This document shows positions 4,385-26,870 of a DNA stretch of 58,655 nt, piece after piece. A model generated the notes under the pieces. It was not told where the DNA came from, did no database searches, and worked only from the letters and a program-made list of their open reading frames with translations. This DNA comes from a virus: the IMG/VR virus record IMGVR_UViG_3300044994_000219, positions 1 to 58,655 of that record. One strand, given 5' to 3'. Position 1 is the first letter of the stretch. Each line of letters starts with the position of its first letter. The position numbers and the translations under genes were made by a program.

Positions 4385-4488
4385 AAGGACACCCCTGTTC
4401 GAGGAGGTGCAGTACGCTCGTGCTTGCCTTGGGTTGGCTAAGCAGTACGAGGGGCGCGCGTTGCAGGACGTGCGCCCCTTTCCTTTTT
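4385..4488 (+). ncRNA. Candidate short non-coding transcript (AGGACACCCC motif to intrinsic terminator)
   Basis: A motif copy at 4385..4402 is followed about 50 nt later by the terminator at 4450..4488. No credible ORF lies between them. Confidence 0.3.
4450..4488 (+). terminator. Rho-independent terminator
   Basis: Stem AGGGGCGC...GCGCCCCT followed by TTTCCTTTTT. Confidence 0.65.
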
Positions 4489-4508
4489 GACGGGCGACGC
4501 AGAGCGTG

Positions 4509-4536
4509 AAAAAGCCGGCGCGGTGGCCGGCTATTT
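4509..4536. terminator. Bidirectional terminator hairpin
   Basis: AAAAAGCCGGC-gcggtg-GCCGGCTATTT. On the minus strand it follows the stop of gene 4563..5099 and ends in TTTTT. Confidence 0.65.
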
Positions 4537-4562
4537 GGTGGGGAGCAGGGTGAGCAGGGGGG

Positions 4563-5099
4563 TCAGCCTGTCCAGACCTCGCGAGGGTTAACGGCGGCCT
4601 GCAGCTTCGGCCTCAGTACCAAGACCGCAGTGTGAGCCTCCTCCGGCGTCTTGAATCTGCCGAGCGATAGTGGGGCCTTCCTGCCTGGCACGGACACCAG
4701 TCCTTCCCACCCGGACGCATGCACCTGTGTCGTGTATGGCAAGCCTGCTCTGTTGCGAGGCAGATGGGGGGAGTGGCGATGCAGCACCAGGTCTGCCACC
4801 CCGAGGCTGGGACCGTTCGTCATCTCGACGTACCCGGCCGGCCACGACCCGTGATGTAGGAGCCAGGCAATCTCAGCAGGGCGGAACGGCTGTCTGTTGA
4901 TGAGCCGCTTTTGCCTCCAAGGCCACCCCCTGGGTTTTTTCTGCTGGCGAATGAAACCCTTCTCCGCCTTGGCGGCGAGTGCCGTGACGACGTTCCACCA
5001 GTGATTTTTGTGCGCCAGAACGATAGCCGGGTCAGGTCTCGTGCACAAACAGTACGGCCCGGAAAAATCACAAACCGGGCAAGGAAGGAGTTCCGACAT
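4563..5099 (-). CDS. Free-standing HNH/AP2-like homing-endonuclease-like protein
   Basis: Internal Met of ORF 4563..5129 (MSELLPCPVCDFSG...). The C-terminal WEGLVSVPGRKAPLSLGRFKTPEEAHTA resembles an AP2-type DNA-binding domain. GGAGG SD upstream, own terminator, locally lower G+C. Confidence 0.7.
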   Translation of the reverse strand: MSELLPCPVCDFSGPYCLCTRPDPAIVLAHKNHWWNVVTALAAKAEKGFIRQQKKPRGWPWRQKRLINRQPFRPAEIAWLLHHGSWPAGYVEMTNGPSLGVADLVLHRHSPHLPRNRAGLPYTTQVHASGWEGLVSVPGRKAPLSLGRFKTPEEAHTAVLVLRPKLQAAVNPREVWTG

Positions 5100-5310
5100 G
5101 TCGCTAAACCTCCAAAAAGTAAGCAGCACTCACAGTGTACCAGCAAACAATTGTCGCCTAGCGCCTTATTTCACTGGTAGGAAACTAAAGAGGATACCAC
5201 TCAACCCCGCGCCGTTATTAGGGTTGCGGGTAGGGTATCCCTTTCTTCTCCATCTGTCGCTATCGGCTACCATTACAACGCGTAACGTGTGTGCGCCATG
5301 CGCCATGCCT

Positions 5311-5390
5311 TATGTTTACTTTCTATTTTTATTTTTATTTTATTTTTATAACTATAGATATAGAGATAAAAGGGATATTAGGGAAAGGGA
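5311..5390. other. AT-rich island with T-tract and GATA/TAGA-type short repeats
   Basis: ttatgtttactttctatttttatttttattttatttttataactatagatatagagataaaagggatattaggg sits in an otherwise G+C-rich genome, between divergent genes. Confidence 0.8.
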
Positions 5391-5616
5391 CCAAGCAACG
5401 GTGCGGGTTTCAGCCGGGTTTCCCTTCTTTTGCCCCTAAGTACCCAAGGAGGGGCAGGCCTGTCGGCCAGGTAGCTGAGCGGTGCGCATCGCCCGGCCAG
5501 GCTTGGCGGCGTGGCACAGTCGAAAGCATGGCCCGAGTCGGAAGTGAGCAAATCTCCTCTTGACGGCGCAGATGTGGTACTGTATGGCCCCATCGACGAA
5601 CCGGTACCCAATCGAC

Positions 5617-6003
5617 ATGACGACTGTTGCGCGAACGCGCTCGCGGGCCTTGCCGATGCAGAAAGTGCAGGACCGGCTGGCGCTGTGGGCAATCCAAGGC
5701 GTGCGCTGCTGGCTGCCCGCCATCGAGGTCACCGAGATCCTCAAGTGGCGCCTGGCGACCCAGTACGGCGTCCAGTATTCGTGGAGCTGGCGGCCTGTGT
5801 CCTTCGCACTGCGGCGCCTGGCGCGCCAGGGCCTGGTCGAGGAGCGCGTGGTCACGTACCGCGGCACGTCGAGAACGAAGGAGGAGCGGCGCGAGTACCG
5901 CTTCGCCAAGGACGAGGAAGACGACGTGATCAAGACCCTGTTCCCCTTACCGAAACCCGCATCGGCGCACGTACCGCGCCGCGTGCATCGAATGAAGGGT
6001 TGA
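5617..6003 (+). CDS. Winged-helix protein upstream of the terminase genes
   Basis: Internal Met of ORF 5560..6003 (MTTVARTRSRALPMQKVQDRLAL...FALRRLARQGLVEERVVTYRG). A possible TTGACG promoter lies about 55 nt upstream. Confidence 0.65.
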   Translation: MTTVARTRSRALPMQKVQDRLALWAIQGVRCWLPAIEVTEILKWRLATQYGVQYSWSWRPVSFALRRLARQGLVEERVVTYRGTSRTKEERREYRFAKDEEDDVIKTLFPLPKPASAHVPRRVHRMKG

Positions 6004-6004
6004 A

Positions 6005-6562
6005 ATGGACAGCAAGACGACGAAGACGGGCTGCGCAAGGGCCAGCGCTGCGGAACGGCGCCGCCTTTTCGTGGAGGCGTACCTCGCGAACGGAGAGAAC
6101 GGCACCGCCGCGGCAATTGCGGCAGGTCTCAGCAAAAAGTCGGCGCACGCACAGGCGCACGCGTTGTTGAAACATCCTGAAGTCGTCGCGCTGATCGCCG
6201 AGCGCCGTGCAGCCGTGACGAAAAAGTACGAGCTCAACACCGAACTGGTGGTGCGCACGATCGTGCAGGAGCTGCAGTTCGACCCGGCCAAGCTGTACGA
6301 CGAAGACGGCCAACTCAAGCCGCTGGATCAGCTCGACGAGGACACCCGGATGGCGCTGACCTCGGTCGAGTTCGCGCAGGTCGGCAGCACCGATGCGCCG
6401 ATCTTCGTGCGCAAGGTCCGCTGGGGCCAGCGCAGTGCGGCCCGCGAGCAGGCGATGAAGTTCCTCGGCATGTTCGAGAAGGACAACAAGCAAAAGGGTG
6501 ACGCGGTCGCCGAGTTCCTGGCGGGCCTGACCCAGTCCGCGCTGCCTGTCGTGAAGGAATGA
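6005..6562 (+). CDS. terS: Terminase small subunit
   Basis: AERRRLFVEAYLANGENGTAAAIAAGLSKKSAHAQAHALLKHPEV is a typical Terminase_2-type N-terminus. It sits directly upstream of terL and overlaps it. Confidence 0.9.
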   Translation: MDSKTTKTGCARASAAERRRLFVEAYLANGENGTAAAIAAGLSKKSAHAQAHALLKHPEVVALIAERRAAVTKKYELNTELVVRTIVQELQFDPAKLYDEDGQLKPLDQLDEDTRMALTSVEFAQVGSTDAPIFVRKVRWGQRSAAREQAMKFLGMFEKDNKQKGDAVAEFLAGLTQSALPVVKE

Positions 6563-8136
6563 GTATCCCGTTTGACTACGTGCCGACGGATCAGGACGAC
6601 CTGATCCGGTGCTTGGCCGATCCGATGTGGCGCGTGTGCTCCGGCCAGCTCTACAGGATCATGGTCAAGAGCGACGAGGGCGAAGGTTCGGTCATCCCGT
6701 TTCGGCCGAACCGCGCGCAGCGTCGTCTGATCAGCCGGCTGTGGCACCGCAACATCATCCTCAAGGCGCGGCAGTTGGGCTTCACTACCCTGATCGCGAT
6801 CCTGTGGCTCGACCACGCCCTGTTCAACGCGAACCAGCGCTGCGGCATCATTGCCCAGGATCGCGAGGCCGCCGAGGCGATTTTCCGCGACAAGGTGAAG
6901 CTGGCCTACGACAGGCTGCCCGCGTTCCTGAAGGAGCACATGCCACTGGTGACGGACAGCAAAACCGAGCTCCTCTTCGGCCACAACAACAGTTCGGTCC
7001 GGGTGGCCACGTCGATGCGCTCCGGGACGATCCACCGGCTCCACGTCTCGGAGTTCGGCAAGATCGGTGCGAAGTACCCGGCCAAGGCGGCTGAGGTCGT
7101 CACAGGCTCGCTGCCGGCCGTGCCGCTCGACGGCATCGTGGTGATCGAATCGACCGCGGAAGGCCAGAGCGGCGAGTTCTACGAGATGACGAAGAAGTCC
7201 CGCGCCGTGGCCGAAAAAGGAGCAACGCTCTCGCCGCGCGACTACCGGTTCCACTTCTTCCCCTGGTGGCAAGAGCCGAATTACCGGCTGCCGCATCTGG
7301 GCGCCGCGGTGCTGTCCGAGAAGGACATCGAATACTTCGACGAGCTCGAGGCCGAGATCGGCGTGAAGATTGACCAGGAGCAGCGCTACTGGTACGTGGC
7401 CACTCGCGACTCGGACTTCTCGGGCGACCCGCAGAAGATGTGGCAGGAGTACCCGAGCACGCCCGACGAGGCCTTCAAGGTCTCGACCGAGGGCTGCTAC
7501 TACTCGGTCCAGCTCTCGGCCGCCAGGACGGCCGGGCGCATCGGCTGCGTGCCGTACCTGGACGGCTTGCCGGTCAATACCTTCTGGGACATCGGCAACA
7601 GCGACGGCACTGCGATCTGGTTCCACCAGCAGCAGGGCCTGACGCACCGGTTCTTCAAGTTCATCGAGGGCTGGGGCGAGCCATATGCGTACTTCATAAA
7701 GCAGATGCAGGAGATGGGCTGCGTCTGGGGCAAGCACTACCTGCCGCACGACGCCGCGCACAAGCGGCAGCAGGGATCCGCGGTGCAGTCGGCCGAGGAC
7801 GAGTTGCGCAAGTTCGCCATCGGCGGTGAGTGGGTGATCGTGCCGCGCATCGACGACATCACCGTCGGCATCCAGATGGTCCGTGACGCCTTCGGCCAAT
7901 ACTGGTTCGACGAGGCCGGCTGCAAGGAAGGCCTGGCGCACCTGGCGCTGTACCGCAAGGAGTGGAACACGCGACTGGGCACTTGGGGCCGCACACCGCT
8001 GCACGACATCCACTCCGAGGCGGCCGACGCACTGCGCCAGCACGCCCAGGGTTACCGGACGGTCGGCGGCACGGCCACGGCGCACCGGGCGGCCCGCGTC
8101 GAGCGGCGCACCCGCCGACCGATGGGCGTGCTCTGA
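6559..8136 (+). CDS. terL: Terminase large subunit
   Basis: 525 aa. NRAQRRLISRLWHRNIILKARQLGFTT is a Walker-A-like region, and the C-terminal half is nuclease-like. Position follows terS. Confidence 0.93.
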   Translation: MSIPFDYVPTDQDDLIRCLADPMWRVCSGQLYRIMVKSDEGEGSVIPFRPNRAQRRLISRLWHRNIILKARQLGFTTLIAILWLDHALFNANQRCGIIAQDREAAEAIFRDKVKLAYDRLPAFLKEHMPLVTDSKTELLFGHNNSSVRVATSMRSGTIHRLHVSEFGKIGAKYPAKAAEVVTGSLPAVPLDGIVVIESTAEGQSGEFYEMTKKSRAVAEKGATLSPRDYRFHFFPWWQEPNYRLPHLGAAVLSEKDIEYFDELEAEIGVKIDQEQRYWYVATRDSDFSGDPQKMWQEYPSTPDEAFKVSTEGCYYSVQLSAARTAGRIGCVPYLDGLPVNTFWDIGNSDGTAIWFHQQQGLTHRFFKFIEGWGEPYAYFIKQMQEMGCVWGKHYLPHDAAHKRQQGSAVQSAEDELRKFAIGGEWVIVPRIDDITVGIQMVRDAFGQYWFDEAGCKEGLAHLALYRKEWNTRLGTWGRTPLHDIHSEAADALRQHAQGYRTVGGTATAHRAARVERRTRRPMGVL

Positions 8137-8153
8137 GGACACCCCTATTCGCG
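8135..8153 (+). promoter_or_regulatory. AGGACACCCC motif copy (candidate phage middle/late promoter)
   Basis: gAGGACACCCCtattcgcg lies 46 nt upstream of the portal ATG. Confidence 0.5.
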
Positions 8154-8198
8154 CGTCTGTGCAAGAGTCGGCGCCAACTACCGGACGAGTCGGCAACG

Positions 8199-10304: not shown

Positions 10305-10328
10305 TCCTCACACTCCTGGACGGCCTTG

Positions 10329-10354
10329 AGCCCGCCTCGTGCGGGCTTCTTTTT
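10329..10354 (+). terminator. Rho-independent terminator after the portal gene
   Basis: AGCCCGC-ctcgt-GCGGGCT followed by TCTTTTT. Confidence 0.7.
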
Positions 10355-10371
10355 GTCCAGCCAGTGTGCCA

Positions 10372-10392
10372 AAAGGACACCCCTGTTTTCGA
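10372..10392 (+). promoter_or_regulatory. AGGACACCCC motif copy
   Basis: aaAGGACACCCCtgttttcga lies upstream of the scaffold gene, just after the portal terminator. Confidence 0.5.
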
Positions 10393-10487
10393 TTGTTCGA
10401 TATACCGCACCTGTGACGAGGCGCAACGCAGCCCAGCGTGACGGGCGTGCCGAGTCGATGACGGACTCCGACCGATAGAGGAAAGCG

Positions 10488-11441
10488 ATGACGAATGCAC
10501 CGAAAGACCTGGACTACTACGCCGCCAACCCGGACGAAATGCCCACCGATCCCGACAAGCTCGCGGAACTGATGGCGCAAATGGAAGGCGGTCCCGCTCC
10601 CGAACAGGCTGAAAGCGACGCGGCAGCCGGCGTGGAAGAAGAGCAGGCCGAAGAGGCACAAGGCGAAGAGCAAAACCAGGGCGAGGCGCAGCAGCAGGAA
10701 CAGCAAGAGGTGGAAGCGCCGATTGCCAGCAAGGACGGCAAGCACACGATCCCGTACGACGTGCTGCGAACCGAGCGCGAGAAACGTCGCGCGGCCGAGC
10801 AGGCGATGCAGGAGCTCCAGGCGCGCATCGAGGCGATGCAGCAAAGCGGCAAGCCGCAGGACCAGGCCGAAGGCGAGACGTCCGACGACGATCTGGCTCA
10901 GATGGCTGAGGACTTTCCGGCCATCGCCAAGCTCCTGGCCCATACGCGCAAGCTCGAACAGCAGTTGCAGTCCGTCGCGAAGCGGATCGAAGACGAAGAC
11001 CGCCAGCGGCAGGAGGCAGCCCAGGCCGAAGTCCGGGCCGCCGTTGATGCCAACCCGACGCTTTTGCACTGGGAGCACAACGACCCGGAACGGTGGGCCG
11101 CTGCGATCGAGGCTGATTCCAAGCTGATGGCGTCACCGGCGCATCGAGGGCTGACGCTGGAGCAGCGACTGGCGAAGGCCGTGGAGATCGTGGATGCCTT
11201 CTATGGCCCCGACACCACGGCGCCGCGCGTAGCACCGGCACAGCCCCAGGAAAAGCCCGCCAAGCCGACGGCAGCGGTGGCGAGTGCCAGGCCGCGGACG
11301 CTTTCGGACATTCCGGGAGGGGTCGTGCCTGCCGCGGATCCGATGGAGGAGTTCGCCCAGATGAGTGTCGACAAGCTCGGCGCGAAGATGGCCGACATGT
11401 CTCCGGACCAGATCAACGCCCTGCTGTCACGCCTTGGCTAG
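10488..11441 (+). CDS. Scaffolding protein
   Basis: Acidic, Ala/Glu/Gln-rich, coiled-coil-like 317 aa, located between portal and capsid. SD is GAGGAAA. Confidence 0.8.
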   Translation: MTNAPKDLDYYAANPDEMPTDPDKLAELMAQMEGGPAPEQAESDAAAGVEEEQAEEAQGEEQNQGEAQQQEQQEVEAPIASKDGKHTIPYDVLRTEREKRRAAEQAMQELQARIEAMQQSGKPQDQAEGETSDDDLAQMAEDFPAIAKLLAHTRKLEQQLQSVAKRIEDEDRQRQEAAQAEVRAAVDANPTLLHWEHNDPERWAAAIEADSKLMASPAHRGLTLEQRLAKAVEIVDAFYGPDTTAPRVAPAQPQEKPAKPTAAVASARPRTLSDIPGGVVPAADPMEEFAQMSVDKLGAKMADMSPDQINALLSRLG

Positions 11442-11471
11442 ACCAACGTGAAAATGCAGGAGTAATACAAC

Positions 11472-12764: not shown

Positions 12765-12772
12765 TCGTGACT

Positions 12773-12824: not shown

Positions 12825-13184
12825 GTGCCGATCTCGATCACCTACCGGGGCAAGAAGCCCTATACCGACCACCTGTACGGCTCGAAGCTGCACTGGGAGG
12901 TCGGCGACACGCGCGACGACGTGCCCGAAGCCGTTGCGGTGAAGCTGCTCAAGCACCCGGAATTTCATGACGCGCGCAAGAACAAGGCCGAGATCAAGGT
13001 CGATCAGCCGCCGCGCGAGCAGGAAGAAGACGTGCAGCCGCCCCTGGTCAATCTGGACGCCATGACCAAGGACCAGCTGATCGAGTACGCACATCGCAAC
13101 TTCGGCGTGAAGCTCGACGCCAGCACCAAGAAGGCCGAGCTGATTGACACCGTGCGCCTGCAGATGGGCAAGCGGGTGCGCTGA
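12825..13184 (+). CDS. Hypothetical virion-module protein with a SAP/HeH-like C-terminus
   Basis: GTG start with an AAGGAGA SD. MTKDQLIEYAHRNFGVKLDASTKKAELIDTV resembles a Rho-N/HeH motif. Confidence 0.75.
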   Translation: MPISITYRGKKPYTDHLYGSKLHWEVGDTRDDVPEAVAVKLLKHPEFHDARKNKAEIKVDQPPREQEEDVQPPLVNLDAMTKDQLIEYAHRNFGVKLDASTKKAELIDTVRLQMGKRVR

Positions 13185-13780
13185 TGGCTCTGCTGGCCGC
13201 GCTCTATCCGTACATCCTGCCGTACCACCCGAACGTGCCGGAGCCGGCCATCGACCGGGCGATTATCGACGGGGCGATCCAGTTCTGCCGGGATACCCTG
13301 GTGTGGCAGGAGACCTCGCCTGTGCCGATCGCGGTGCAGCCGGGCGTGCGGGAGTACGAGATCGAGCCGGACGCCCGCGCCGAGCCGATGCGCGTGCTGG
13401 CCGCGGTGCTTGCCGACGAGAAGCTGGACCGGGCCACCCTGGCAGGTAGTGACGTGCGGCGGCTGGGCACCTCGGTGGCCTTCACGCAGCCGACGCCGCG
13501 CGTGCTGCACCTCGTCGATACGCCGCGGCGCGCCGGGTCGCTGGTGCTGCGCCTCGCCCTCGAGCCGATGGTCAACACCACGACGCTGGAAGACGAGCTG
13601 GTGCGGTACTGGCGGGAGCCCCTGGCCGCGGCCGCCCGACACCGCCTGTGTCTGCAGGCCGGCGACGTGAAGGGTGCGCAGATCGCCGAGCAGCTCTACC
13701 AGCGCGACATGGCGCGCGCCAAGGCGCGAGGCCAGGTCGGGGCGGGCCGCGGGCGCCTTCGCACGCGGCCGGTTTGGTAA
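13184..13780 (+). CDS. Head-completion/adaptor-like structural protein
   Basis: ATG overlaps the upstream TGA. 198 aa in the structural block. Confidence 0.7.
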   Translation: MALLAALYPYILPYHPNVPEPAIDRAIIDGAIQFCRDTLVWQETSPVPIAVQPGVREYEIEPDARAEPMRVLAAVLADEKLDRATLAGSDVRRLGTSVAFTQPTPRVLHLVDTPRRAGSLVLRLALEPMVNTTTLEDELVRYWREPLAAAARHRLCLQAGDVKGAQIAEQLYQRDMARAKARGQVGAGRGRLRTRPVW

Positions 13781-13798
13781 AGGACACCCCCATTCGCC
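13779..13798 (+). promoter_or_regulatory. AGGACACCCC motif copy
   Basis: aaAGGACACCCCcattcgcc lies 48 nt upstream of the GTG at 13846. Confidence 0.5.
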
Positions 13799-13845
13799 AA
13801 TAGTCGATAGCCTCCGGGGTTGAGAGAGCTCTGAGGTGTTCTACT

Positions 13846-14511
13846 GTGGCCAACGTCCAAGTCGATGACGTACTGATCCGGCTCCGCGACCTACTATTGG
13901 ACGCGGACGACGTGCGCTGGCCCCTCGAGGAGAAGCTGCGCTACATCGCCGACGGTGTGCGCGAAGTGGCGTTCTTCAAGCCGGACGCCTGCGCGAAAAC
14001 CGCGGTGGTGCAGCTGGTCGCAGGTGTGCGCCAGACGCTGCCGGACGATGCGTCTTCGCTCCTCGATGTGGTGCGCAACATGGGCACGAACCGATCCACT
14101 CCCGGCCTGGCGCCGCGTAGCGTCGATCGGTCGGCCCTCGATGCGCACGTCCCGGGGTGGCACAAGTCGCCGCCCAGCCAGGAAGTGCGTCACTTCATGT
14201 TCGACCCGCAGGACCAGAAGGTTTTCCTGGTCTGGCCACCCCAGCCGGATACCAACCCCGGCTCGCTGGAGTTGGTCTATGCGGCCGTTCCGGCTGCAGC
14301 CTCAGTGGGGGCATCGCTCCCCCTCGATTCGGTCTGGCTGCCGGCTCTCCTGAACTACGTGATGTACCGCTGCTGGAGCAAGGACGCTGAGCACGCCGCG
14401 AATGCCCAGCTCGCAGTGGCGTACTACCAGGCCTTCGGCGCCGCCTTGCAAGGACGCACGGCGGCCGAAGGGGCCACCGACGTGAATCTCAACCGCGCAC
14501 CTCGCGCATAG
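13846..14511 (+). CDS. Structural protein (adaptor-like)
   Basis: 221-aa ORF with a GAGG SD. Position is in the head-tail joining region. Confidence 0.7.
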   Translation: MANVQVDDVLIRLRDLLLDADDVRWPLEEKLRYIADGVREVAFFKPDACAKTAVVQLVAGVRQTLPDDASSLLDVVRNMGTNRSTPGLAPRSVDRSALDAHVPGWHKSPPSQEVRHFMFDPQDQKVFLVWPPQPDTNPGSLELVYAAVPAAASVGASLPLDSVWLPALLNYVMYRCWSKDAEHAANAQLAVAYYQAFGAALQGRTAAEGATDVNLNRAPRA

Positions 14512-14536
14512 CACGACCACCCCGTAGGAGACACCC

Positions 14537-16412: not shown

Positions 16413-16413
16413 C

Positions 16414-16974
16414 ATGACGCAACTGTTCGCGAACAACGTCTCCACGACCCTGAACGGCGCCATCAGCACCGTCGCCACGGTGCTGACCGTGGCAAACGGC
16501 TCGGGCATGCCGGCACCCACCGGGGGCGACTTTTTCCTGCTCACCCTGGTCGGCCTCGACGGTAACGGCAACGAGAGTGCCTGGGAGATCGTGAAAGTCA
16601 CGGCACGCACAGGCAACGACCTCACCGTTGAGCGTGCGCAAGAAGGCACTTCCGCGCGAGCGTGGCCGGACGCGACGCGGTGCGAACTTCGCCTGACCGC
16701 TGGGTCGCTGAAGGGGCTGGGCGCTGCGGGCTGGAACATCACATCCACTGCGACGAGTAAGACCCTGGCCGACCGCGAGTGGTGTTCCGTCACTGCCGCC
16801 GGCCAGACCATCACGTTGCCTGCATCGCCGACTGCAGGGATGGAGTGCCGCGTGTCGGTTGGTGCTTTTGACGACACGCTGGTCAATTACGGCGGGGCCG
16901 ATACGTGGCGGATCAATGCTGCGGGCGCGACGGTGACGTTTGCGTACAAAGGAACTGAGTGGAGGTATATCTGA
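16414..16974 (+). CDS. Tail fiber protein (conserved fiber N-terminal domain)
   Basis: TTLNGAISTVATVLTVANGSGMPAPTGGDFFLLTLVG...WEIVKVTARTGNDLTVERAQEGTSARAW matches the widespread tail-fiber N-terminal pattern. Confidence 0.75.
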   Translation: MTQLFANNVSTTLNGAISTVATVLTVANGSGMPAPTGGDFFLLTLVGLDGNGNESAWEIVKVTARTGNDLTVERAQEGTSARAWPDATRCELRLTAGSLKGLGAAGWNITSTATSKTLADREWCSVTAAGQTITLPASPTAGMECRVSVGAFDDTLVNYGGADTWRINAAGATVTFAYKGTEWRYI

Positions 16975-17453
16975 TGGCGGTGATTAATTTGTTTGGTGGC
17001 GGTGGCTGGAAGCCGCCTGTCGGGACGGCGCACTATCTGGGGTCGTCGTGGCCGACTGTGACTGTCGACGGTATGACGTTCCTGAAAGCGGGGCTTGCTG
17101 TTTCCAGTAGCGAATTACCAAGCTATCCGATATCGACCGTGGGAGGGGTCCAAGCACGTGTTTGGTCCGCCGTGACCTCTGGGTTCGGGTCGACGATCAT
17201 CAACGCCGTCGCCACAAACGGCGCTGGTGTCTGGGTTGCTGTGGGCGGCAACGGCAGGATGACTCGCTCCACGGACAACGGCGCAACGTGGTCCGCCGTG
17301 ACCTCTGGGTTCGGGTCGACGATCATCAACGCCGTCGCCACAGACGGCGCTGGTGTCTGGGTTGCTGTGGGCGGCAGCGGCATGATGACTCGCTCGCCGC
17401 TCTACATCGGCATCGAATTCACGGCCCCGAATCTTTACCTGAGGATTGCATGA
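16974..17453 (+). CDS. BNR/propeller-like repeat protein (tail accessory)
   Basis: Internal Met of ORF 16959..17453. Two 42-aa repeats (WSAVTSGFGSTIINAVAT.GAGVWVAVGG.G.MTRS; the first continues into TDNGATW), consistent with a BNR/Asp-box-like motif. Confidence 0.7.
   Translation: MAVINLFGGGGWKPPVGTAHYLGSSWPTVTVDGMTFLKAGLAVSSSELPSYPISTVGGVQARVWSAVTSGFGSTIINAVATNGAGVWVAVGGNGRMTRSTDNGATWSAVTSGFGSTIINAVATDGAGVWVAVGGSGMMTRSPLYIGIEFTAPNLYLRIA
17163..17396 (+). repeat. Two near-identical 108-bp direct repeats, period 126 bp
   Basis: 17163..17270 and 17289..17396 differ at about 3 positions. Confidence 0.85.
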
Positions 17454-18448: not shown

Positions 18449-18654
18449 TGGTACTTCTCCCCGACTGGCGCGAGGTGCTCCGCAAAGCGTGGAGCGTGCG
18501 CTTGATGCTTCTGGCTGGGGTGCTCACCGGAATGGAGGTCGTCCTTCCACTGTTTGTCCATGACATCCCACGCAACGTGTTCGCCGTACTGTCCGGGGTA
18601 ACTGTGTGTGCTGCACTCGTCGCTCGTCTGCTTGCACAGAAGGATCTGCAATGA
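18445..18654 (+). CDS. Holin/pinholin candidate
   Basis: 69 aa with two hydrophobic helices (VRLMLLAGVLTGMEVVLPLFV and VFAVLSGVTVCAALVARLL). It lies immediately upstream of the endolysin and overlaps it. Confidence 0.7.
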   Translation: MMVLLPDWREVLRKAWSVRLMLLAGVLTGMEVVLPLFVHDIPRNVFAVLSGVTVCAALVARLLAQKDLQ

Positions 18655-19112: not shown

Positions 19113-19115
19113 CGT

Positions 19116-19574
19116 GTGGTTACCTATCTACAAATCGCCGCTGCAGTTGTGGTTGGAGTCCTGGGCTTCTGGCTGGGGCATGGGATGGCTTCAGGGGCTT
19201 GCGCGAAACGCGAGCTGGCTGTCGCAACGGCCTACGCGGATTGGGGCAAGTCCGCTCTTGAGGGAGTCCGTGCGTCACTTGAAGCTGAACAAAAACGCGC
19301 CGTTCTCGCCGCCGAAGCGCGAGGGCGCAAAGCTGCTCTATCTCAGGGGGTGATTGCCGATGCGACTCAAGACCTGGATCGTAGCTGCGAGTGGCGTGAC
19401 CCTCACCGCCTGCGCATCGAAGCCCTCTATGCCGCCTATGGAGTGCGTGCCGGAACCGGTGGCACCGGAATGCGCGCAACGCTGCCCGGACCCACCGCCG
19501 ACAACCCTGCCACGCGAGCTGTGGGAGCTGGAAGTGCTGCAGTGGGGTTTGGGCTGCAAAGCCCTGCACGATGA
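19116..19574 (+). CDS. Rz: i-spanin (Rz-like)
   Basis: GTG start with a GGGAGG SD, an N-terminal TM helix (IAAAVVVGVLGFWLG), then a charged periplasmic region. Located after the endolysin. Confidence 0.75.
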   Translation: MVTYLQIAAAVVVGVLGFWLGHGMASGACAKRELAVATAYADWGKSALEGVRASLEAEQKRAVLAAEARGRKAALSQGVIADATQDLDRSCEWRDPHRLRIEALYAAYGVRAGTGGTGMRATLPGPTADNPATRAVGAGSAAVGFGLQSPAR

Positions 19575-19596
19575 TTGCGCGAGGTCCGACGAATGA
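19360..19596 (+). CDS. Rz1: o-spanin (Rz1-like lipoprotein), overlapped in the +1 frame
   Basis: MRLKTWIVAASGVTLTAC carries the lipobox LTAC and the mature part is Pro-rich. It starts inside Rz and ends 22 nt beyond it. Confidence 0.75.
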   Translation: MRLKTWIVAASGVTLTACASKPSMPPMECVPEPVAPECAQRCPDPPPTTLPRELWELEVLQWGLGCKALHDDCARSDE

Positions 19597-21887: not shown

Positions 21888-23271
21888 GCAGGTATCCGCG
21901 CCGGTGAGCGGTGTGGCACCGGCGACCGGCGTGCAGGATCCAGCCGCCCGCAGGGTGCTGCAGGATCTGATCACGGCGCACAACACCCGCAACGGGCAGA
22001 CAGAGCAGCGGTTTCTGACCGAGGCCGACATCAGGCACTTGTCCCAGCAGATCGTCTCGGAAGGGATGCAGCGGCTGGCGACCAGCATTTCGTCCATCGG
22101 CGGTGATCTGCCCGGCGCACCCGGGTGGGGAACCGTCGGCGACTTGGTCGAAGCGGTGGGTCAGATCGTCGAGCGCTCGCCGCTGTGGGAGGCGCTGGGT
22201 GCGCGCATCGAGTGGCTGAACCGGCAGAACAGCCTGTCGATCGGGAAGATCGCCACACTCGCGGACGGCTTCACGCAGGAGCGGGAAGAACGGCTGGACG
22301 GGCAATCGACCCTCGCCAGGGAGGTGTCCGCGGTCAAGGTGACGGCAGGCGGGAACACCGCCGCGATCCTCGAGGAGAAGGAGGTACGGGCCAACGCGGT
22401 GAGCGCGCTGGTGCAGGCGGTCAATACCGTGTTCGCCGCGGTCGGCAACAACAGTGCATTGATCCAGGACGGCGGGAACCTTTCGGTGAACTGGAACGCA
22501 TCCCAGGCGACGAAGTGGAGCCAGATGCAGACCGAGGTGTTCGGCGCCGACGGTACGCCGATTCGACAGGCACTCGCCGAAGAGGCGCAGTTGCGCGCCG
22601 ATCGCGACGGCAATCTGGCCGCGCACTACACGGTGAAGATCGACCAGAAGGGGTGGGTGTCGGGCTTCGGCCTGATGAGCCTGACCAGCCCGAACAGCAA
22701 CCCGACCAGTGCGTTCTACGTGAGGGCGGACCGGTTCGCCATCGGCAACCCGGCCCAGCCTGTACCTGCCGGCACAACGCCGCCGGCAGCAAACATCCCG
22801 TTCGTTGTGCAGACGACCGGCACCACCGATCCGGTGACCGGTGCACCAATTCCGGCGGGCGTCTACATGAAAGACACTTTCATCCGGAATGCCAGTATCG
22901 ACACGCTACACCTCGCGGGTAATGCGGTATCGGTGTCTGCGTTCGCATCCGGCGGTTCATACGTTGCCACGACGATCAATATTCCGGCCGGGCAGACATA
23001 CCGGGTCATCGGCATCGCGGAGTTTTGGGGTTGGTACACCGGGACTGGAAACCTCATTGACGGAGGCATTTCTGTCCATCAAACGTTCTCAGTCAACGGC
23101 ATCAGTTCGCCCCGTCGCGCCATTGTCGGGGCCGATGGTCACGTTACGTGGGATCACACCTTGGTGCATGGTCGATTCGTGACCGGACCAACAACATTGA
23201 CGGTGTCCGCAACCGGCCCCGCTGCAATTAGCGGAGCGTGCAACCTGACCGTGCTCGCATTCAAGAGGTGA
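21880..23271 (+). CDS. Tail fiber/host-specificity protein
   Basis: Internal Met of ORF 21709..23271. The coiled N-terminal half and the motifs AFYVRADRFAIGNP and GVYMKDTFIRNASIDTLHLAGNAV resemble host-specificity (J-like/DUF1983-type) proteins. Confidence 0.75.
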   Translation: MAKQVSAPVSGVAPATGVQDPAARRVLQDLITAHNTRNGQTEQRFLTEADIRHLSQQIVSEGMQRLATSISSIGGDLPGAPGWGTVGDLVEAVGQIVERSPLWEALGARIEWLNRQNSLSIGKIATLADGFTQEREERLDGQSTLAREVSAVKVTAGGNTAAILEEKEVRANAVSALVQAVNTVFAAVGNNSALIQDGGNLSVNWNASQATKWSQMQTEVFGADGTPIRQALAEEAQLRADRDGNLAAHYTVKIDQKGWVSGFGLMSLTSPNSNPTSAFYVRADRFAIGNPAQPVPAGTTPPAANIPFVVQTTGTTDPVTGAPIPAGVYMKDTFIRNASIDTLHLAGNAVSVSAFASGGSYVATTINIPAGQTYRVIGIAEFWGWYTGTGNLIDGGISVHQTFSVNGISSPRRAIVGADGHVTWDHTLVHGRFVTGPTTLTVSATGPAAISGACNLTVLAFKR

Positions 23272-23275
23272 CCAG

Positions 23276-23686
23276 ATGAAACCCTTCACGCTCTTCGAGC
23301 GCCGGACCGGGCGCATCATCATGAGTGGGACTACCGAGGTGCTGCCCTCCACTACAGCGGAGCAAGGCATCCTCGAATGCCTGAGCCAGCCCCACACGCA
23401 GATGGTTGTCGCAGGCAAAGTCGTCGATATGCCGAAGCGTCCGAGTGAGCACCACCGCTTCGACTGGAGCACGAAAGTGTGGGCGCTCGATGCGGAGAAG
23501 GCCTGGGCGGCAGTGCGCGCAACCCGCGACCGGCGCCTGGCTGAATCCGACTGGACAACGCTGCCGGACGTGCCCCTGACCGACGCCCAGCGTGCCGCGT
23601 GGCGGGCTTACCGGCAGGCGCTGCGTGATGTCACGCAGCAGACGGACCCGCTGAACATCTGTTGGCCGGACAGACCTCAGCCATAG
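23276..23686 (+). CDS. Tail fiber assembly chaperone
   Basis: The C-terminal RDRRLAESDWTTLPDVPLTDAQRAAWRAYRQALRDVTQQTDP...WPDRP is the typical tail-fiber-assembly motif. Located after the fiber gene. Confidence 0.8.
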   Translation: MKPFTLFERRTGRIIMSGTTEVLPSTTAEQGILECLSQPHTQMVVAGKVVDMPKRPSEHHRFDWSTKVWALDAEKAWAAVRATRDRRLAESDWTTLPDVPLTDAQRAAWRAYRQALRDVTQQTDPLNICWPDRPQP

Positions 23687-23705
23687 GACACCCCCGCTGC
23701 GAAAG
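23683..23705 (+). promoter_or_regulatory. AGGACACCCC motif copy
   Basis: atAGGACACCCCcgctgcgaaag overlaps the stop of the chaperone gene, upstream of 23716. Confidence 0.45.
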
Positions 23706-23715
23706 ATGCGGCAGG

Positions 23716-24135
23716 ATGCAGACCATGAAATTCATCGGCGTCGTCCCCAAGGATCTGGCTGTCGGCCCCCTGTGGCCTCAGATCGCCGCGCTCCTCGAGC
23801 GCGCGATGCCCTATGGCCGTGGGGAATACACACTGGATGACATCCGCGAGGGCATCGCCGGCGGGCGCATGTTTGCCATCGCAGTGGCCGACGAGTCGAT
23901 TATCGAGTTCGTGGCGACGTGCGTGCTGGTCGAGTTTCCGCGTAAGCGCGTGCTCTATGTGCAGTATGGCGCAGGTCGCGGTGCCGAGCGTGCGAGGGAG
24001 GCCTTGGTCGCAGCGGCCCGCACCCTCAAGTGCGACTGGGTCGAGACCCGGACGCGGCTGGCGGTGGCGAAGCTGTACCAGCGATCGGGGTTTGACATCG
24101 GCTATTGCGTGCCGATTCTGGAGATTGATCAATGA
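23716..24135 (+). CDS. Small GNAT-like-fold protein (tentative); start 23716 or 23725
   Basis: Internal Mets of ORF 23662..24135 (MQTMKFIGVVPKDL...VLYVQYGAGRG...AKLYQRSGF). Confidence 0.6.
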   Translation: MQTMKFIGVVPKDLAVGPLWPQIAALLERAMPYGRGEYTLDDIREGIAGGRMFAIAVADESIIEFVATCVLVEFPRKRVLYVQYGAGRGAERAREALVAAARTLKCDWVETRTRLAVAKLYQRSGFDIGYCVPILEIDQ

Positions 24136-25790
24136 CAAGCAGGCGACAACTCTACGCGGCCGGTGAGCCGCTAGGTGACAGCGTAACCCGGCACGAAGGC
24201 GGGCGGCTGATCCTCGGTGGTGGTGGGGGTGGTGGCGGTGCCGACAACTACGCCAACCTCGAGAAGCTCTACGGCGAACAGGCCGAGTCCGCGCGCCTGT
24301 TGCGGGGCCTGGCCGAGGCGAACCTGCCGGGCGTGACTGACGGCTACATGCGCTCGGTCAACGAGACGCTGGATCCGGGCTACGCCGAGAAGCAGGCCGG
24401 CCAGGCGCAAGCCGACATGGCAAGTGCCAACGCGATGGAGCGGGCCGCGATCATCCGCGACCTGACCTCGATGGGGGTCAATCCGAACGATCCGCGGTTC
24501 GCGGGTTCCCTGCGCAGGCTGGAGTCGGCCAACGCAGCACGGATGGCGGCCGGTGCGAACGCGGCACGTCACGACGCGAAGAACTACCAGCGCGCGGTCG
24601 CCCAGGACGCCATCGGCACCTTCACCGGCCAGAGCAACATGGCGGCCAACCAGATGAGCAGTGCCACGAGCGGCATGAGCACCCTGGCGCAACAACAGCA
24701 GCAGGCCCAGATGAACAAGGACGCCCAGAAGCAGAACGCCGCTTCGGCGGCCGTGGGCGGCACGATGGCGTTGATGAGCCTGAAGGATGGCGGCAAGGTG
24801 AAAACCGTGGAGCGCCACATGCTGGGCGGTACTGCCGGCGGGCAGCAGCACGGCTTCTTCCAGACTGGCCAGGTGACCGCCCCGCCGGCGCAGGCGCAGC
24901 GTCCGCAACAGAGCCCGGTGAGTAGCGCGATGGCCGGCGCCAGGCAGGGCAACCAGCTCAAGCAGTTGCTCCAGAACCCCACTGCCGGGGGTGACAAGAT
25001 GGCGAATGTCGTCGCCAAGGTGGGTGGCCAGCAGGCCGGGGCCAACGTCGGCGCCCAGTCTGCAGGCATGCGGATGAGCGCAAAACAGGCAGGTGCGGCA
25101 CGGGACGCCTACCTGTCGGCAGCGAAGGAAGCGGCAGCGGCAGGGGATCCGGCCGCGGCCCAGCAGTACATGGACCTCGCGGCAAACATCTCTGACGGGG
25201 CAGGTCTCGGCGCAGAGGTCGCCACGGAAGTCGCAGGCAGCCAGGGCCTGGCCAGTGCTGCCGGCGCAGTGCCGGGGGCCTCTTCGACGGTTACAGGGGC
25301 GCTGGGCTCGGGCGGGATGAGCACAGCCGCAGGGGCGTCGGTGCCAGGTGCGACCTCCACGATCTCGGGAGCCCTCGGTGCCGGCGGGATGAGCACCGGC
25401 GCCACCACCGCGGCCACTTCGACGCTTGCCGGTACGGCAGGGGCGGGCTCCGCGGCGATGGCTGCCGTCGGCACTGCGCTGCCTTGGGTCGGCGCGGCGA
25501 TGGCCGTCGGCTCCTTGCTCGGCGCCTGGAAGAATGGCGGCAAGGTCGAGAAGGTCGGCAACAGCGTGGATCTGAGGGACGACGGCGGCAAGGTGCCCGG
25601 CGAGTGGCGCGGCAACGATGACACCGTGCCGGCGCTGCTCACGGAAGAGGAGCACGTCGTCAATGCCGAGGCCGCGGCGATGATCGGGCACGACACGCTG
25701 GAGCGGCTGAACAAGAAGGGGCTGGCTCAGCGCAAGAAGGGCAAGACGCCGAAGGACATCAAACGGGTTGGACTGGGAGCACTGGCATGA
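24132..25790 (+). CDS. Internal virion/ejection protein (Ala/Gly/Gln-rich)
   Basis: 552 aa of low complexity, with a GGGGGGGG tract. Located before the giant virion protein, with ATGA overlaps on both sides. Confidence 0.7.
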   Translation: MTSRRQLYAAGEPLGDSVTRHEGGRLILGGGGGGGGADNYANLEKLYGEQAESARLLRGLAEANLPGVTDGYMRSVNETLDPGYAEKQAGQAQADMASANAMERAAIIRDLTSMGVNPNDPRFAGSLRRLESANAARMAAGANAARHDAKNYQRAVAQDAIGTFTGQSNMAANQMSSATSGMSTLAQQQQQAQMNKDAQKQNAASAAVGGTMALMSLKDGGKVKTVERHMLGGTAGGQQHGFFQTGQVTAPPAQAQRPQQSPVSSAMAGARQGNQLKQLLQNPTAGGDKMANVVAKVGGQQAGANVGAQSAGMRMSAKQAGAARDAYLSAAKEAAAAGDPAAAQQYMDLAANISDGAGLGAEVATEVAGSQGLASAAGAVPGASSTVTGALGSGGMSTAAGASVPGATSTISGALGAGGMSTGATTAATSTLAGTAGAGSAAMAAVGTALPWVGAAMAVGSLLGAWKNGGKVEKVGNSVDLRDDGGKVPGEWRGNDDTVPALLTEEEHVVNAEAAAMIGHDTLERLNKKGLAQRKKGKTPKDIKRVGLGALA

Positions 25791-26812
25791 GCGGACTGGC
25801 GATTCTCACGGGGCTGGGGCAAGGCGCGATGCAGGGATCCCAGTTCATGCTGAACGCACGGCAGCAAGAGGAGCAGGCGCGACGTCAGCAGGCGCAGCTC
25901 AGCATGTTGCAAGAACGGCACGCCTGGCAAAAACAGGACCGCGAACGCGAGGCGCAGGAGCAGGAGCGGGTGCAGGCCTGGCAGAACCTGTCGATGAGCG
26001 TGGATACCAACTATCGGGATCGTGACCCGCTCGACCGTAACGCGATGAAGCTGGACCTCGGAATGAAGGCCGGGATCATTCAGCCCAACGAATTCCAGGC
26101 CTTGATGGCGCAGCGCAACCAGCTCGAGCAGGAAGGCCTGCTGACCGACATCGCGATGGGGAATACCAGGGCACTCGAGCAGAAGTTTGGCGCACGCCTC
26201 GGTCAGCCGGTAACGATCAGGCAGACCCGGCGCCCGGATGGGCGGATGCTCTTTCAGGTAACCGGCGCGAACGGCCAGGTGATGAGCGAACTGGACGAGG
26301 AGCAGATCGGCATACTGCTCGGTGTCGATCGCCTCGTGCAGATGGGCGAGGTTGGGCGTGAGCGGGAGAAACACGCTGCGGATCTGCGCAAGACGGACAG
26401 CGAGATCGGGCGTAACAAGGCGTCTGCCGCCGCCAGCCACGCCAGCGCGAAGAAGTATCAGGCAGAGGCGCGTGGTCAGGAGCTGGAGAACGAGGGGCTG
26501 GCGGCATTGCCCCCTGCAGATCGAAGGGGCACCCGCCAGAAAGGGGCGGACGATTGGATGTCCACCGGCGCCAAGGAGCAGGAGATGTACCGTCGCATGT
26601 CGCCGGAGCAGCAGAAAGCGTACCGGGCACGGCGGGTGGCGGAGATGACCACCGATCTCCTGAAGACGAACAACACGTCCTATATCGGGCCCGGCGGGCG
26701 GGCCAAGGCGCGGGCCGACGCCGAGGCGGAAGTCGATACCATCCTGGGTGCGGGCCCCGCACCTGGCGCAGGGTCGGCGGAGGACGCAGACCCGCTCGGT
26801 TTGTTCAAGTGA
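25787..26812 (+). CDS. Internal virion protein (charged coiled coil)
   Basis: 341 aa, rich in Gln/Glu/Arg, translationally coupled to the upstream gene. Confidence 0.7.
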   Translation: MSGLAILTGLGQGAMQGSQFMLNARQQEEQARRQQAQLSMLQERHAWQKQDREREAQEQERVQAWQNLSMSVDTNYRDRDPLDRNAMKLDLGMKAGIIQPNEFQALMAQRNQLEQEGLLTDIAMGNTRALEQKFGARLGQPVTIRQTRRPDGRMLFQVTGANGQVMSELDEEQIGILLGVDRLVQMGEVGREREKHAADLRKTDSEIGRNKASAAASHASAKKYQAEARGQELENEGLAALPPADRRGTRQKGADDWMSTGAKEQEMYRRMSPEQQKAYRARRVAEMTTDLLKTNNTSYIGPGGRAKARADAEAEVDTILGAGPAPGAGSAEDADPLGLFK

Positions 26813-26815
26813 TGT

Positions 26816-26838
26816 AGCGCCCGCCTCGTGCGGGCGCT
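26816..26838 (+). terminator. Hairpin sharing its core with the portal terminator
   Basis: AGCGCCCGC-ctcgt-GCGGGCGCT has the same GCCCGCCTCGTGCGGGC core as 10329..10354. The T-tract is weak. Confidence 0.5.
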
Positions 26839-26845
26839 GTTGCAA

Positions 26846-26870
26846 GAGGACACCCCCGCCGCGAGAAAAC
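26846..26870 (+). promoter_or_regulatory. AGGACACCCC motif copy
   Basis: agAGGACACCCCcgccgcgagaaaac lies 45 nt upstream of the giant gene. Confidence 0.5.

Follow-up and report, generated by a model that had tools for sequence, protein, structure and literature searches.

A two-block candidate promoter repeated along the structural gene cluster of a temperate podophage-like element

The window, meaning the whole 58,655-nucleotide stretch of viral DNA analysed here (IMG/VR record IMGVR_UViG_3300044994_000219), contains six copies of a short intergenic box. Each copy probably forms the upstream part of a phage-specific promoter, for use by a host sigma70-type RNA polymerase together with a phage-encoded activator, for which protein g9 is proposed. 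In the proposed layout, the box AAGG(A/G)CACCCC would lie at about −40 to −30, followed by a 17-bp spacer and the hexamer NANNNT, with the start of transcription about 7 nt past the hexamer. Late promoters that depend on an activator are familiar from phages; nothing of this kind has been annotated for this group of temperate podophage-like elements. The two-block consensus lets transcription units be predicted in these prophages and would account for terminator–promoter cassettes, for a leaderless gene and for a structure masking a ribosome-binding site that an internal promoter would bypass.

The box and its downstream hexamer

The 10-mer AGGACACCCC occurs in six exact copies starting at positions 4386, 8136, 10374, 13781, 23685 and 26847, all of them on the plus strand and outside the called genes. 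The initial annotation had reported the same count, strand and intergenic placement, with start coordinates that were 1–2 nt too low, and had put the number expected by chance below one; the mean over dinucleotide-preserving shuffles is 0.20 copies, and six was not reached in any of 100. Copies with one mismatch added nothing comparable in the window. An exhaustive search of both strands with a weight matrix covering both blocks returned only the six sites, scoring 23.7–36.7 (everything else in the window scored 8 or less and the shuffle maximum was 14.4), which upholds both the count and the strand bias. The direction of the box always matches that of the downstream genes, and the end of the 10-mer is followed by the next start codon at 53 nt (portal), 104 nt (scaffold), 55 nt (gene 13846), 30 nt (gene 23725) or 54 nt (giant gene). 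The downstream flank YRYT-CG, described earlier as common to the copies, stands only in part: four of the six read YRTTCG, and relatives conserve only the first base after the box (Y).

A second block, overlooked in the initial annotation, is the hexamer NANNNT, which follows the box at a distance of exactly 17 nt. All six window copies have its A, and five have its T. Information content peaks at the box and then at this A (2.5 bits) and this T (1.6 bits), 19 and 23 nt past the box; conservation of the box ends after 11–12 bp, and no other position between or around these elements is conserved. When the window and its relatives are taken together, the A stands at the 17-nt spacing in 37 of about 40 distinct intergenic sites preceded by AA, and most of these sites have the T four bases past the A. 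Three sites of locus L032 have the hexamer A at 16 nt instead of 17. Copies of the 9-mer elsewhere in the loci (n = 14), which are mostly intragenic and lack the upstream AA, have the A in only one case.

In relatives, the box reads AAG[G/C][A/G]CACCCC and occupies the same intergenic positions as in the window. In those with 69–82% portal identity, AAGGGCACCCC recurs at three to five of these positions, and the non-coding sequence flanking the conserved box has diverged. CF418P1, a fully sequenced relative, has neither g9 nor the box. In locus L009, the DNA 5′ of the box is unrelated and the box with its downstream sequence is identical, which places a mosaic joint at the box. This joint, and the orientation of all copies on the plus strand, would suit a DNA element outside transcription, such as a strand-specific nick site, a recombination or module boundary, or a packaging or partition site. 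Such an element fails to predict the exclusively intergenic placement, the co-direction with genes, the −10-like hexamer and the alignment of the site 5 start codon described below, and it is an extremely improbable explanation. Orthologous conservation, co-direction and a hexamer at a fixed distance favour a phage-specific promoter, as first suggested for this motif.

Promoter class

In sequence, the box and the hexamer together have the layout of a sigma70-family promoter with a specific box in place of its −35 region (−40 to −30). The hexamer can be read as a minimal −10 element, with the invariant A corresponding to A−11 and the frequent T to T−7. As expected of an activator-dependent promoter of this family, a −10 hexamer with A2 and T6 lies 16–18 bp from the upstream element, and the sites are located in non-coding DNA, upstream of and co-directional with the genes that they would serve. 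Since the box takes the place of the −35 region and is unlike TTGACA, RNA polymerase alone should use the sites poorly, and an activator is probably needed. The hexamers match TATAAT poorly beyond A−11 and T−7; their first base is T, C or A in five window sites, without a fixed pattern. A scan with the sigma70 consensus gave no matches, and box promoters are invisible to such scans. The motif had been described as unlike a sigma70 promoter; this applies to its unorthodox −35 region, whereas the site as a whole is sigma70-like, given NANNNT 17 nt downstream.

No RNA polymerase or sigma factor was recognised in the gene set by Pfam, PHROG, NCBIfam and PDB sequence searches, as had been surmised from the open reading frames. 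The giant protein is a polyvalent protein with LPD37, LPD38 and RadC domains only, with no domain assigned within its first 2000 residues and no sign of a polymerase among those assigned; the 990-aa protein is a DNA polymerase that carries an endonuclease-like insert. A T7-like single-subunit RNA polymerase promoter was rejected: the gene set has no RNA_pol match, and in place of a contiguous block of about 20 bp running through an AT-rich −4..−1 region into the start, only two single positions are conserved after the first 11–12 bp. The string AGGGCAC is common to the box and the K11 promoter; the similarity goes no further. By inspection, no window site has a GC at the distance required for a sigma54 promoter (GG at −24, GC at −12, 10 bp between).

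An alternative sigma factor, either a host factor of ECF or other type or a divergent phage sigma, might use the box as its −35 element. The box is exactly at the −35 place with a spacer of 16–17 bp, and a 114-aa protein (42314–42658) has a weak Sigma70_r4_2 match (E = 0.007). This protein, however, was not found in the box-bearing relatives examined, and no protein in the gene set carries both sigma regions 2 and 4. A–N3–T is the signature of group 1–3 sigmas and not of ECF factors, the −10 element of which is CGT/GTC; for an ECF promoter, the AAC of the −35 element is also missing, and CG is found at −15/−14 in some sites only. The box and g9, moreover, travel together across different elements and presumably different hosts. 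An alternative sigma factor is thus unlikely.

Sites, terminators and predicted transcripts

The six sites would act as distributed internal promoters along the structural gene cluster (Table 1), serving the portal gene, the scaffold and capsid genes, the adaptor block, the 23725 block and the gene of the giant injected protein. Two of them would restart transcription just after terminators, and site 1 would drive a short terminated RNA only.

Table 1. Candidate promoter sites and associated features of the window
Feature	Position	Strand	Description
Site 1	4385..4418	+	Box AAGGACACCCC 4385–4395; 17-nt spacer; hexamer TACGCT 4413–4418; predicted start ~4425
Predicted short RNA from site 1	4425..4489	+	~60 nt; predicted to end at hairpin 4449–4480 and its T-run
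sigma70-like promoter upstream of g9	5560..5588	+	Putative; TTGACG, 17 nt, TATGGC
g9	5656..6003	+	115-aa predicted winged-helix protein; candidate activator reading the box
Site 2	8135..8168	+	Box overlaps TerL stop codon; hexamer AAGAGT 8163–8168; predicted start ~8176
Terminator hairpin after portal gene	10328..10355	+	Core GCCCGCCTCGTGCGGGC and T-run
Site 3	10373..10406	+	Box; hexamer TATACC 10401–10406; predicted start ~10414
Site 4	13780..13813	+	Box abuts TAA stop of gene 13184–13780; hexamer TAGCCT 13808–13813
Site 5	23684..23717	+	Box overlaps TAG stop of tail-fibre assembly gene; hexamer CAGGAT 23712–23717
Hairpin after gene 25787–26812	26815..26840	+	Core GCCCGCCTCGTGCGGGC; weak T-run
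Site 6	26846..26879	+	Box; hexamer CAAGGT 26874–26879; predicted start ~26887

Two features of the arrangement noted in the initial annotation are borne out. Copies of the box directly follow terminator hairpins with a shared core, which is present exactly at 10330 and 26819, just 5′ of sites 3 and 6, and both hairpins fold stably. One copy, that of site 1, precedes a plus-strand terminator (4449–4480) with no ORF between. The short RNA predicted from this site is ORF-free and antisense to the 3′ end of the minus-strand gene 4563–5099; no Rfam family matched it. Site 1 is kept in L017, a 97%-related contig, as AGGACACCTC with TACGAT.

The predicted start of site 2 lies 23 nt 5′ of the portal ATG (8199), and the site has orthologues in L003–L009, L026, L028, L032 and L034. 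From the predicted start of site 3, a conserved leader of 74 nt leads to the scaffold ATG at 10488, and that of site 6 precedes the giant-protein ATG at 26911. At site 4, transcription is predicted to start at about 13821, upstream of the GTG at 13846. RNA reading through this site would have its Shine–Dalgarno sequence and start codon buried in a fold (−25.4 kcal/mol, z = −3.6); RNA from the predicted start is without that fold, so the masking structure would be bypassed by the internal promoter. At site 5, ATG 23725 coincides with the predicted start, and the mRNA would be leaderless. This ATG stands exactly at +31 after the 10-mer and 7 nt after the hexamer in both the window and L013; in the latter, the intervening sequence is different and contains no Shine–Dalgarno sequence.

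The position of the box, which often abuts the upstream stop codon, and the Shine–Dalgarno-like character of its AGGA raise the question of whether the motif acts in RNA, as a site of processing, of ribosome standby or re-initiation, or of protein binding on a polycistronic late mRNA. It does resemble real ribosome-binding sites of the phage, AGGAGACACCCATG at 14522 and AGGAGACCCCATG on the minus strand at 44234. Yet no start codon is located 5–9 nt past the box in the window or at orthologous sites, and relatives read GGG for GGA. Nor is there a consistent predicted pairing partner, as the box falls in either arm or in loops, with a mean unpaired probability of 0.47. Two sites follow terminators, and site 1 is placed among minus-strand genes, where no upstream plus-strand transcript is expected. 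A pattern in which an invariant A and a T keep a fixed distance while the sequence between varies freely is one of DNA reading, and action in RNA is very improbable.

The candidate activator g9

The initial annotation called for a phage-encoded activator or else an unrecognised polymerase activity; g9 is the strongest candidate for an activator that recognises the box. Its gene opens the packaging/late cluster and lies immediately 5′ of terS. The protein would probably be made from a putative ordinary promoter at 5560–5588, which could start the cascade; once bound to the box, g9 would recruit or reposition the polymerase. Transcription would start at the sites with the use of sigma70, and g9 would activate rather than repress. 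The window has no box upstream of g9, terS or terL, so other means must drive some of the late cluster.

The AlphaFold2 model of g9 is of modest confidence (pLDDT 77.7) and has the order H-H-H-E-E-H, that is, three helices followed by a predicted β-hairpin wing, as in winged-helix folds. The best Foldseek matches, also of modest confidence (TM-scores 0.5–0.6, E ~1e-3), are RTP (1f4k), the winged-helix domain of Orc1 (2v1u) and PadR (5x11). Judging by the model, g9 looks like a DNA-binding regulator. Small winged-helix proteins often bind repeats as dimers, and an asymmetric 11-bp site is unusual for them. As those of the PadR/MarR type are mostly repressors, and overlap with the −35 region is a common operator position, the box might be a repressor operator that shuts off otherwise constitutive promoters. 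No TTGACA-like −35 element, however, is present under or beside the box, the weak −10 hexamers would make poor promoters without help, and the box is invariant while the rest of the promoter drifts; an operator is improbable.

The case for g9 as the activator draws in part on its distribution. No Pfam, NCBIfam or PHROG family matched g9, and no homologues were found in 50,697 GenBank phage records; the family is small, with 46 clusters at 50% identity in a set of 1.84 billion proteins. Loci L018, L023, L026, L028, L031, L032 and L034 were fetched via distant g9 homologues (31–48% identity), and all of them carry the box and the hexamer. The gene is retained where the terminase genes have been swapped, and in L026 and L028, which both carry the box, g9 is the only window protein found beyond the packaging and structural ones. 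Among the non-structural proteins, it alone accompanies the box from one otherwise unrelated element to another. L018 and L023, which are integrative elements, have g36 and a portion of the giant protein in common with the window as well, so in these two the association with the box is not peculiar to g9. Protein and box are not perfectly paired, since the recognition-helix region is nearly identical in L024, with no box in 20 kb, and in L025, with one variant copy only.

Tentatively, and with a chance a little short of even, g9 may found an undescribed family of phage late-gene activators, in which a single winged-helix domain replaces −35 recognition at an 11-bp box, internal re-initiating late promoters replace the single-promoter Q antitermination of lambdoid phages, and the same pair is used by integrase/AlpA elements with polyvalent proteins. 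If true, the shared pair might link the expression of these elements to that of phages. The box and g9 would also constitute a compact, probably orthogonal promoter/activator pair for high-GC Proteobacteria.

The closest functional parallels, by analogy, are PhoB at pho boxes and T4 MotA at MotA boxes. Regulators of the PhoB/OmpR type place a winged-helix domain over the −35 region of promoters without a −35 hexamer, as is proposed for g9; pho boxes, in contrast, consist of direct repeats in tandem, to which a two-domain response regulator binds as dimers, whereas g9 is a single 115-aa domain facing one asymmetric 11-mer. In T4 middle promoters (MotA and AsiA), a phage-specific box of about 10 bp stands in for the −35 element, the sigma70 −10 element is kept and a small phage protein reads the box, the part proposed here for g9. 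The MotA box is centred at −30, 11–13 bp from a good TAtaaT, unlike the present box at −40 to −30 (centre about −35) with its 17-bp spacer and minimal −10 element. The two box sequences are unrelated, no MotA or AsiA homologue was found in the gene set by PHROG or Pfam, and a MotA-type middle promoter was rejected.

In temperate Gram-positive phages, a small activator gene of the RinA/ArpU/LtrC type, located directly upstream of terS, turns on the packaging and morphogenesis genes (PMC3152322). The window has five or six candidate promoters within the late cluster, with none ahead of terS, whereas a single promoter, 5′ of terS, is the target of RinA. As g9 lacks any Pfam, NCBIfam or PHROG family, no similarity to RinA, ArpU or LtrC was detected; a RinA-family activator was rejected, only the gene position upstream of terS being in agreement.

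In L026 and L031, g9 follows NinG/NinB and precedes terS, which is the late-regulator (Q) slot of lambdoid phages, and the short promoter–terminator RNA predicted at site 1 resembles that of pR′–tR′. Lambda Q is an antiterminator at a single promoter, whereas the box is repeated after terminators, which suggests re-initiation and not read-through; no Q family was detected. The Ogr protein of P2 and the delta protein of P4 offer a likeness of another kind, with the same activator-dependent promoter type in phage late operons and in a second integrative element, as L018 and L023 carry both g9 and the box. Ogr and delta are zinc-finger proteins that act on a dyad at about −55, unlike g9 and its box.

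The box, its second block and their reading as promoters

The 10-mer box AGGACACCCC occurs in the 58,655-bp window in six exact copies (sites 1–6), all on the plus strand and all outside gene calls. The initial annotation had given this number and strand correctly, with the sites real and their starts placed 1–2 nt too low; its expectation of less than one chance copy agrees with dinucleotide-preserving shuffles, in which the mean is 0.20 copies and six were never reached. With the exact copies set aside, one-mismatch copies are not above expectation in the window. Five boxes precede genes of the structural module by 30–104 nt, sites 3 and 6 lie 25–30 nt past terminator hairpins that share the core GCCCGCCTCGTGCGGGC, found exactly just upstream of both, and site 1, flanked by minus-strand genes, is followed by a plus-strand terminator with no intervening ORF; the genes downstream of the five, the shared hairpin core and the terminator after the ORF-less site had been recognised at the outset. 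Forms of the box include AAGGACACCCC, AAGGGCACCCC (relatives) and AAGCGCACCCC (locus L031).

Features of the window discussed in the text (window positions)
Feature	Position	Strand	Remarks
Site 1	4386	+	hexamer TACGCT
Site 2	8136	+	hexamer AAGAGT; precedes portal gene (8199)
Site 3	10374	+	hexamer TATACC; precedes scaffold gene (10488)
Site 4	13781	+	hexamer TAGCCT; precedes gene 13846
Site 5	23685	+	hexamer CAGGAT; precedes gene 23725
Site 6	26847	+	hexamer CAAGGT; precedes gene of the 3,666-aa giant protein (26911)
Hairpin core GCCCGCCTCGTGCGGGC	10330, 26819		upstream of sites 3 and 6
Site 1 region	4362–4489		two convergent terminators
Terminator hairpin	4395–4372	−	one arm is the box complement
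Terminator	4449–4480	+	after site 1
AT-rich stretch	5300–5380		divergent gap preceding the late cluster
Candidate g9 promoter	5560–5588		TTGACG–17 nt–TATGGC
Gene call of g9	5572–6003	+	upstream of the terminase genes
Late cluster	5572–37911	+	TerS, TerL, portal, scaffold, major capsid protein, adaptor and head proteins, internal virion protein, tail fibre and assembly protein, giant polyvalent protein
GATTGTTCG copies	10360–10400		one or both sides of the site 3 box
Scaffold leader	10413–10487		conserved in relatives
Tandem duplication	17190–17400		near-exact, about 100 nt
Nucleotide-metabolism pair	38283–39291	−	dCMP deaminase; MazZ-like dATP/dGTP diphosphohydrolase (dGTP_diPhyd_N)
DNA polymerase	39291–42263	−	family A (phrog_17)
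Predicted tRNA	42689–42788	−	100 nt
phrog_93 fragment	52332–52682	+	second fragment, separate ORF
IS605/IS607-type pair	54233–55740	+	serine-resolvase-like gene and TnpB

In an alignment of the sites anchored on the box, information content is at background beyond the first base 3′ of the box, with two isolated peaks further on: an A 19 nt past it (2.5 bits) and a T 23 nt past it (1.6 bits). The hexamer that they outline, NANNNT, begins exactly 17 nt past the box; a two-block matrix of box and hexamer, run on both strands, matches the window at the six sites and nowhere else. The A stands at the 17-nt spacing in 37 of about 40 distinct intergenic sites and at 16 nt in the three sites of locus L032; many related sites, being orthologous, are not independent, but the six paralogous window sites alone give the invariant A. 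The A was confirmed, as a hypothesis fixed in advance, by the sites in loci fetched through the candidate activator g9. Of 14 further 9-mer copies in the loci, most of them within genes and lacking the upstream AA, one has it. All three L032 sites (2201, 4474 and 7917) combine the 16-nt spacer with a G directly after the box, which looks like a lineage-wide shift of the predicted promoter geometry.

Region 2 of sigma70-family factors reads two bases of the −10 element, A at position 2 and T at position 6, and the normal distance between the −35 and −10 elements is a spacer of 16–18 bp. A −10-like hexamer at the normal −35 spacing places the box at −40 to −30. The final hexamer of the box, CACCCC, takes the place of TTGACA and is unlike it, so the early statement that the motif does not resemble a sigma70 promoter is right for the box and wrong for the whole site, with its NANNNT and 17-nt spacer. 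On the evidence of sequence comparison, the sites are very probably promoters; the full statement, that they are read by sigma70 together with a phage activator, is likely, if a step less secure.

Other functions were considered for the box. A ribosome-binding site would call for a suitably spaced start codon, and none is present in the window or at orthologous sites in relatives; a CsrA/RsmA site requires GGA, and relatives have GGG. Inspection of the sequence showed that the spacings and second blocks do not fit sigma54, sigma28, sigma32 or hrp-box layouts. AGGGCAC resembles the K11 and SP6 promoters; the resemblance is not continued past these bases, and Pfam, PHROG, NCBIfam and PDB sequence searches of the window genes yielded neither an RNA polymerase nor a sigma factor, as the first reading of the genome had maintained. 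The giant protein, considered as an N4-like virion RNA polymerase, shows only LPD37, RadC-JAB and LPD38 domains, all assigned beyond its N-terminal 2000 residues, and no PDB sequence match. The 990-aa protein, considered as a hidden RNA polymerase, is the phrog_17 DNA polymerase with an endonuclease-like insert. As to a signal acting in RNA, sites 3 and 6 lie past terminators and site 1 amid minus-strand genes, so that an upstream plus-strand transcript to carry one would be lacking; no consistent predicted pairing or hairpin was found around the motif.

Single sites are consistent with the promoter reading. At site 5, in the window and in the relative L013, the downstream ATG lies at +31 after the 10-mer, 7 nt past the hexamer, which is the predicted start point. 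The sequence between box and ATG differs between the two, and L013 has no Shine–Dalgarno sequence; a leaderless mRNA would explain the position of the ATG. Read-through RNA at site 4 folds so as to bury the Shine–Dalgarno sequence and start codon (−25.4 kcal/mol, z = −3.6), and RNA from the predicted start is missing the 5′ arm of this masking structure; relatives have an equivalent hairpin, with the Shine–Dalgarno sequence in its 3′ arm.

According to the proposed model, g9 would be expressed from an ordinary promoter, recognised by reading of the sequence, and would bind the box, making the weak −10 elements usable by the sigma70 holoenzyme. The five internal late promoters would boost transcription along the structural cluster or set it going again, and the sixth, at site 1, would yield a short, terminated transcript some 60 nt long (4425–4489). 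Start points are predicted at about 4425, 8176, 10414, 13821, 23725 and 26887 for sites 1–6. The g9-containing operons of L006 and L018 are themselves preceded by a box, which would provide positive feedback.

The two terminators at site 1 enclose this predicted RNA, which would run antisense to gene 4563–5099 at its 3′ end. The region is 94% conserved in a 97%-related contig (L017), where the box reads AGGACACCTC. The scaffold leader is also conserved in L004, L005, L007, L008, L026, L028 and L032; it has an invariant ACGGACTCCGACCGAWAGAGGA just 5′ of the start codon and, further upstream, a hairpin showing a few compensatory changes, and may be cis-regulatory, for example in autoregulation of scaffold synthesis. 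Rfam gave no match for the site 1 RNA or this leader. The GATTGTTCG copies beside the site 3 box, also present in L004, L005 and L007, may be where a second protein binds, specifically at the scaffold/capsid promoter.

Occurrence of the box in related phages

Relatives fetched via the portal protein (L003–L009 and L013; 69–82% identity) keep the box at matching intergenic positions, which answers the question of conservation raised initially. AAGGGCACCCC is found directly 3′ of the TerL stop codon, between the portal terminator and the scaffold gene, and 3′ of the homologue of gene 13184–13780; in L013, a box is also present at the site 5 counterpart. The non-coding flanks have diverged among these relatives, which argues that the box itself is under selection. 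Because L006 has the box in both its GGA and its GGG form, position 4 of the 10-mer can be written as R. The box is absent from some more distant relatives and from Achromobacter phage CF418P1, the closest GenBank phage, in which no analogous motif was found; a literature search for the motif strings returned unrelated primer sequences only. L009 (3200–3240) differs from L003 and L008 in the gene preceding the box, which is unrelated, and is identical to them from the box onwards, indicating a mosaic recombination joint at the box.

g9 as a candidate reader of the box

In every relative that bears the box, tblastn with the window proteome finds the g9 gene kept ahead of the terminase genes, even beside TerS and TerL of a different type. 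Its homologues are 110–146 aa long, which makes the ATG at 5656 the probable true start and the protein 115 aa long. The family comprises 46 clusters at 50% identity in a set of 1.84 billion proteins; it matches no Pfam, NCBIfam or PHROG family, and no homologues were found in 50,697 GenBank phage records or 72,556 plasmids. The AlphaFold2 model (pLDDT 77.7) is a winged helix, with RTP, the Orc1 winged-helix domain and PadR as the best structural matches.

Loci fetched via distant g9 homologues (31–48% identity), with the motif not a criterion, contain box-plus-hexamer sites: two in L018, one in L023, four in L026, three in L028, one in L031 (with AAGCGCACCCC), three in L032 (16-nt spacer) and two in L034. 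L018 and L023 lack head genes and are elements of the integrase/AlpA kind. Two other loci, L026 (GCA_023093675.1) and L031, are prophages of lambdoid type with g9 between ninG/ninB and terS, the slot of a late regulator; in L026, none of about 24 early genes matches window proteins, and only g9 and the packaging/structural genes are common to both. No box is seen in 20 kb of L024, and L025 shows a single variant copy, 5′ of its portal gene, although the presumed recognition helix of the g9 homologue is nearly identical in each; L018 and L023 also have the g36 gene (25787–26812 in the window) and part of the giant protein in common with the window. Given these exceptions and this sharing, g9 is the leading candidate, not the demonstrated factor, and the balance tips slightly towards its being the activator that reads the box.

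Activator-dependent phage late promoters are a known general kind; here, the predicted regulator belongs to an undescribed family and the promoter set is unusually distributed. Functionally, the proposed system resembles T4 MotA-box promoters and PhoB-type activation at promoters without a −35 element, but belongs to neither family by sequence or site geometry. In gene position, g9 resembles lambda Q, and also RinA-type late activators (PMC3152322), but belongs to neither by sequence or geometry.

In L018 (7536–12690) and L023 (2863–4126), g9, a box, a g36 homologue and a large protein sharing a segment with the giant protein are found; these could be satellites or related integrative elements using the same putative promoter system.

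Genome context

The window is a phage or prophage genome of 65.5% GC. Its TerL DNA is about 74–79% identical to that of Bcep22-like Burkholderia, Ralstonia and Pseudomonas phages, and the closest capsid protein is that of CF418P1 (52% identity). Outside the late cluster, the genome encodes replication proteins (the DNA polymerase, RdgC, an Enc34-type SSB, DUF2800, a helicase, a primase-polymerase and an SNF2 protein) and small regulators (Cro-like, CII-like and a DksA/TraR zinc finger). Searches for relatives with gene 24132–25790 and the giant-protein N-terminus found nothing.

The adjoining deaminase and diphosphohydrolase genes hint at nucleotide-pool manipulation or modified DNA; their homologues in L006 adjoin a box. 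The endonuclease-like insert of the DNA polymerase (about 290 aa, phrog_93, residues 465–752) could be an intein or homing endonuclease. The predicted tRNA, called by Rfam (46 bits) and not reported by ARAGORN, could bear an insertion or have an unusual arm. The TnpB of the IS605/IS607-type pair is an OrfB_IS605 protein with a Cas12f-like TNB domain. The stretch at 5300–5380, sharply AT-rich and containing T-run repeats (tttttattttt...), may serve as an origin, mark a genome end or belong to an early regulatory region. The tandem duplication lies within ORF 16959–17453.
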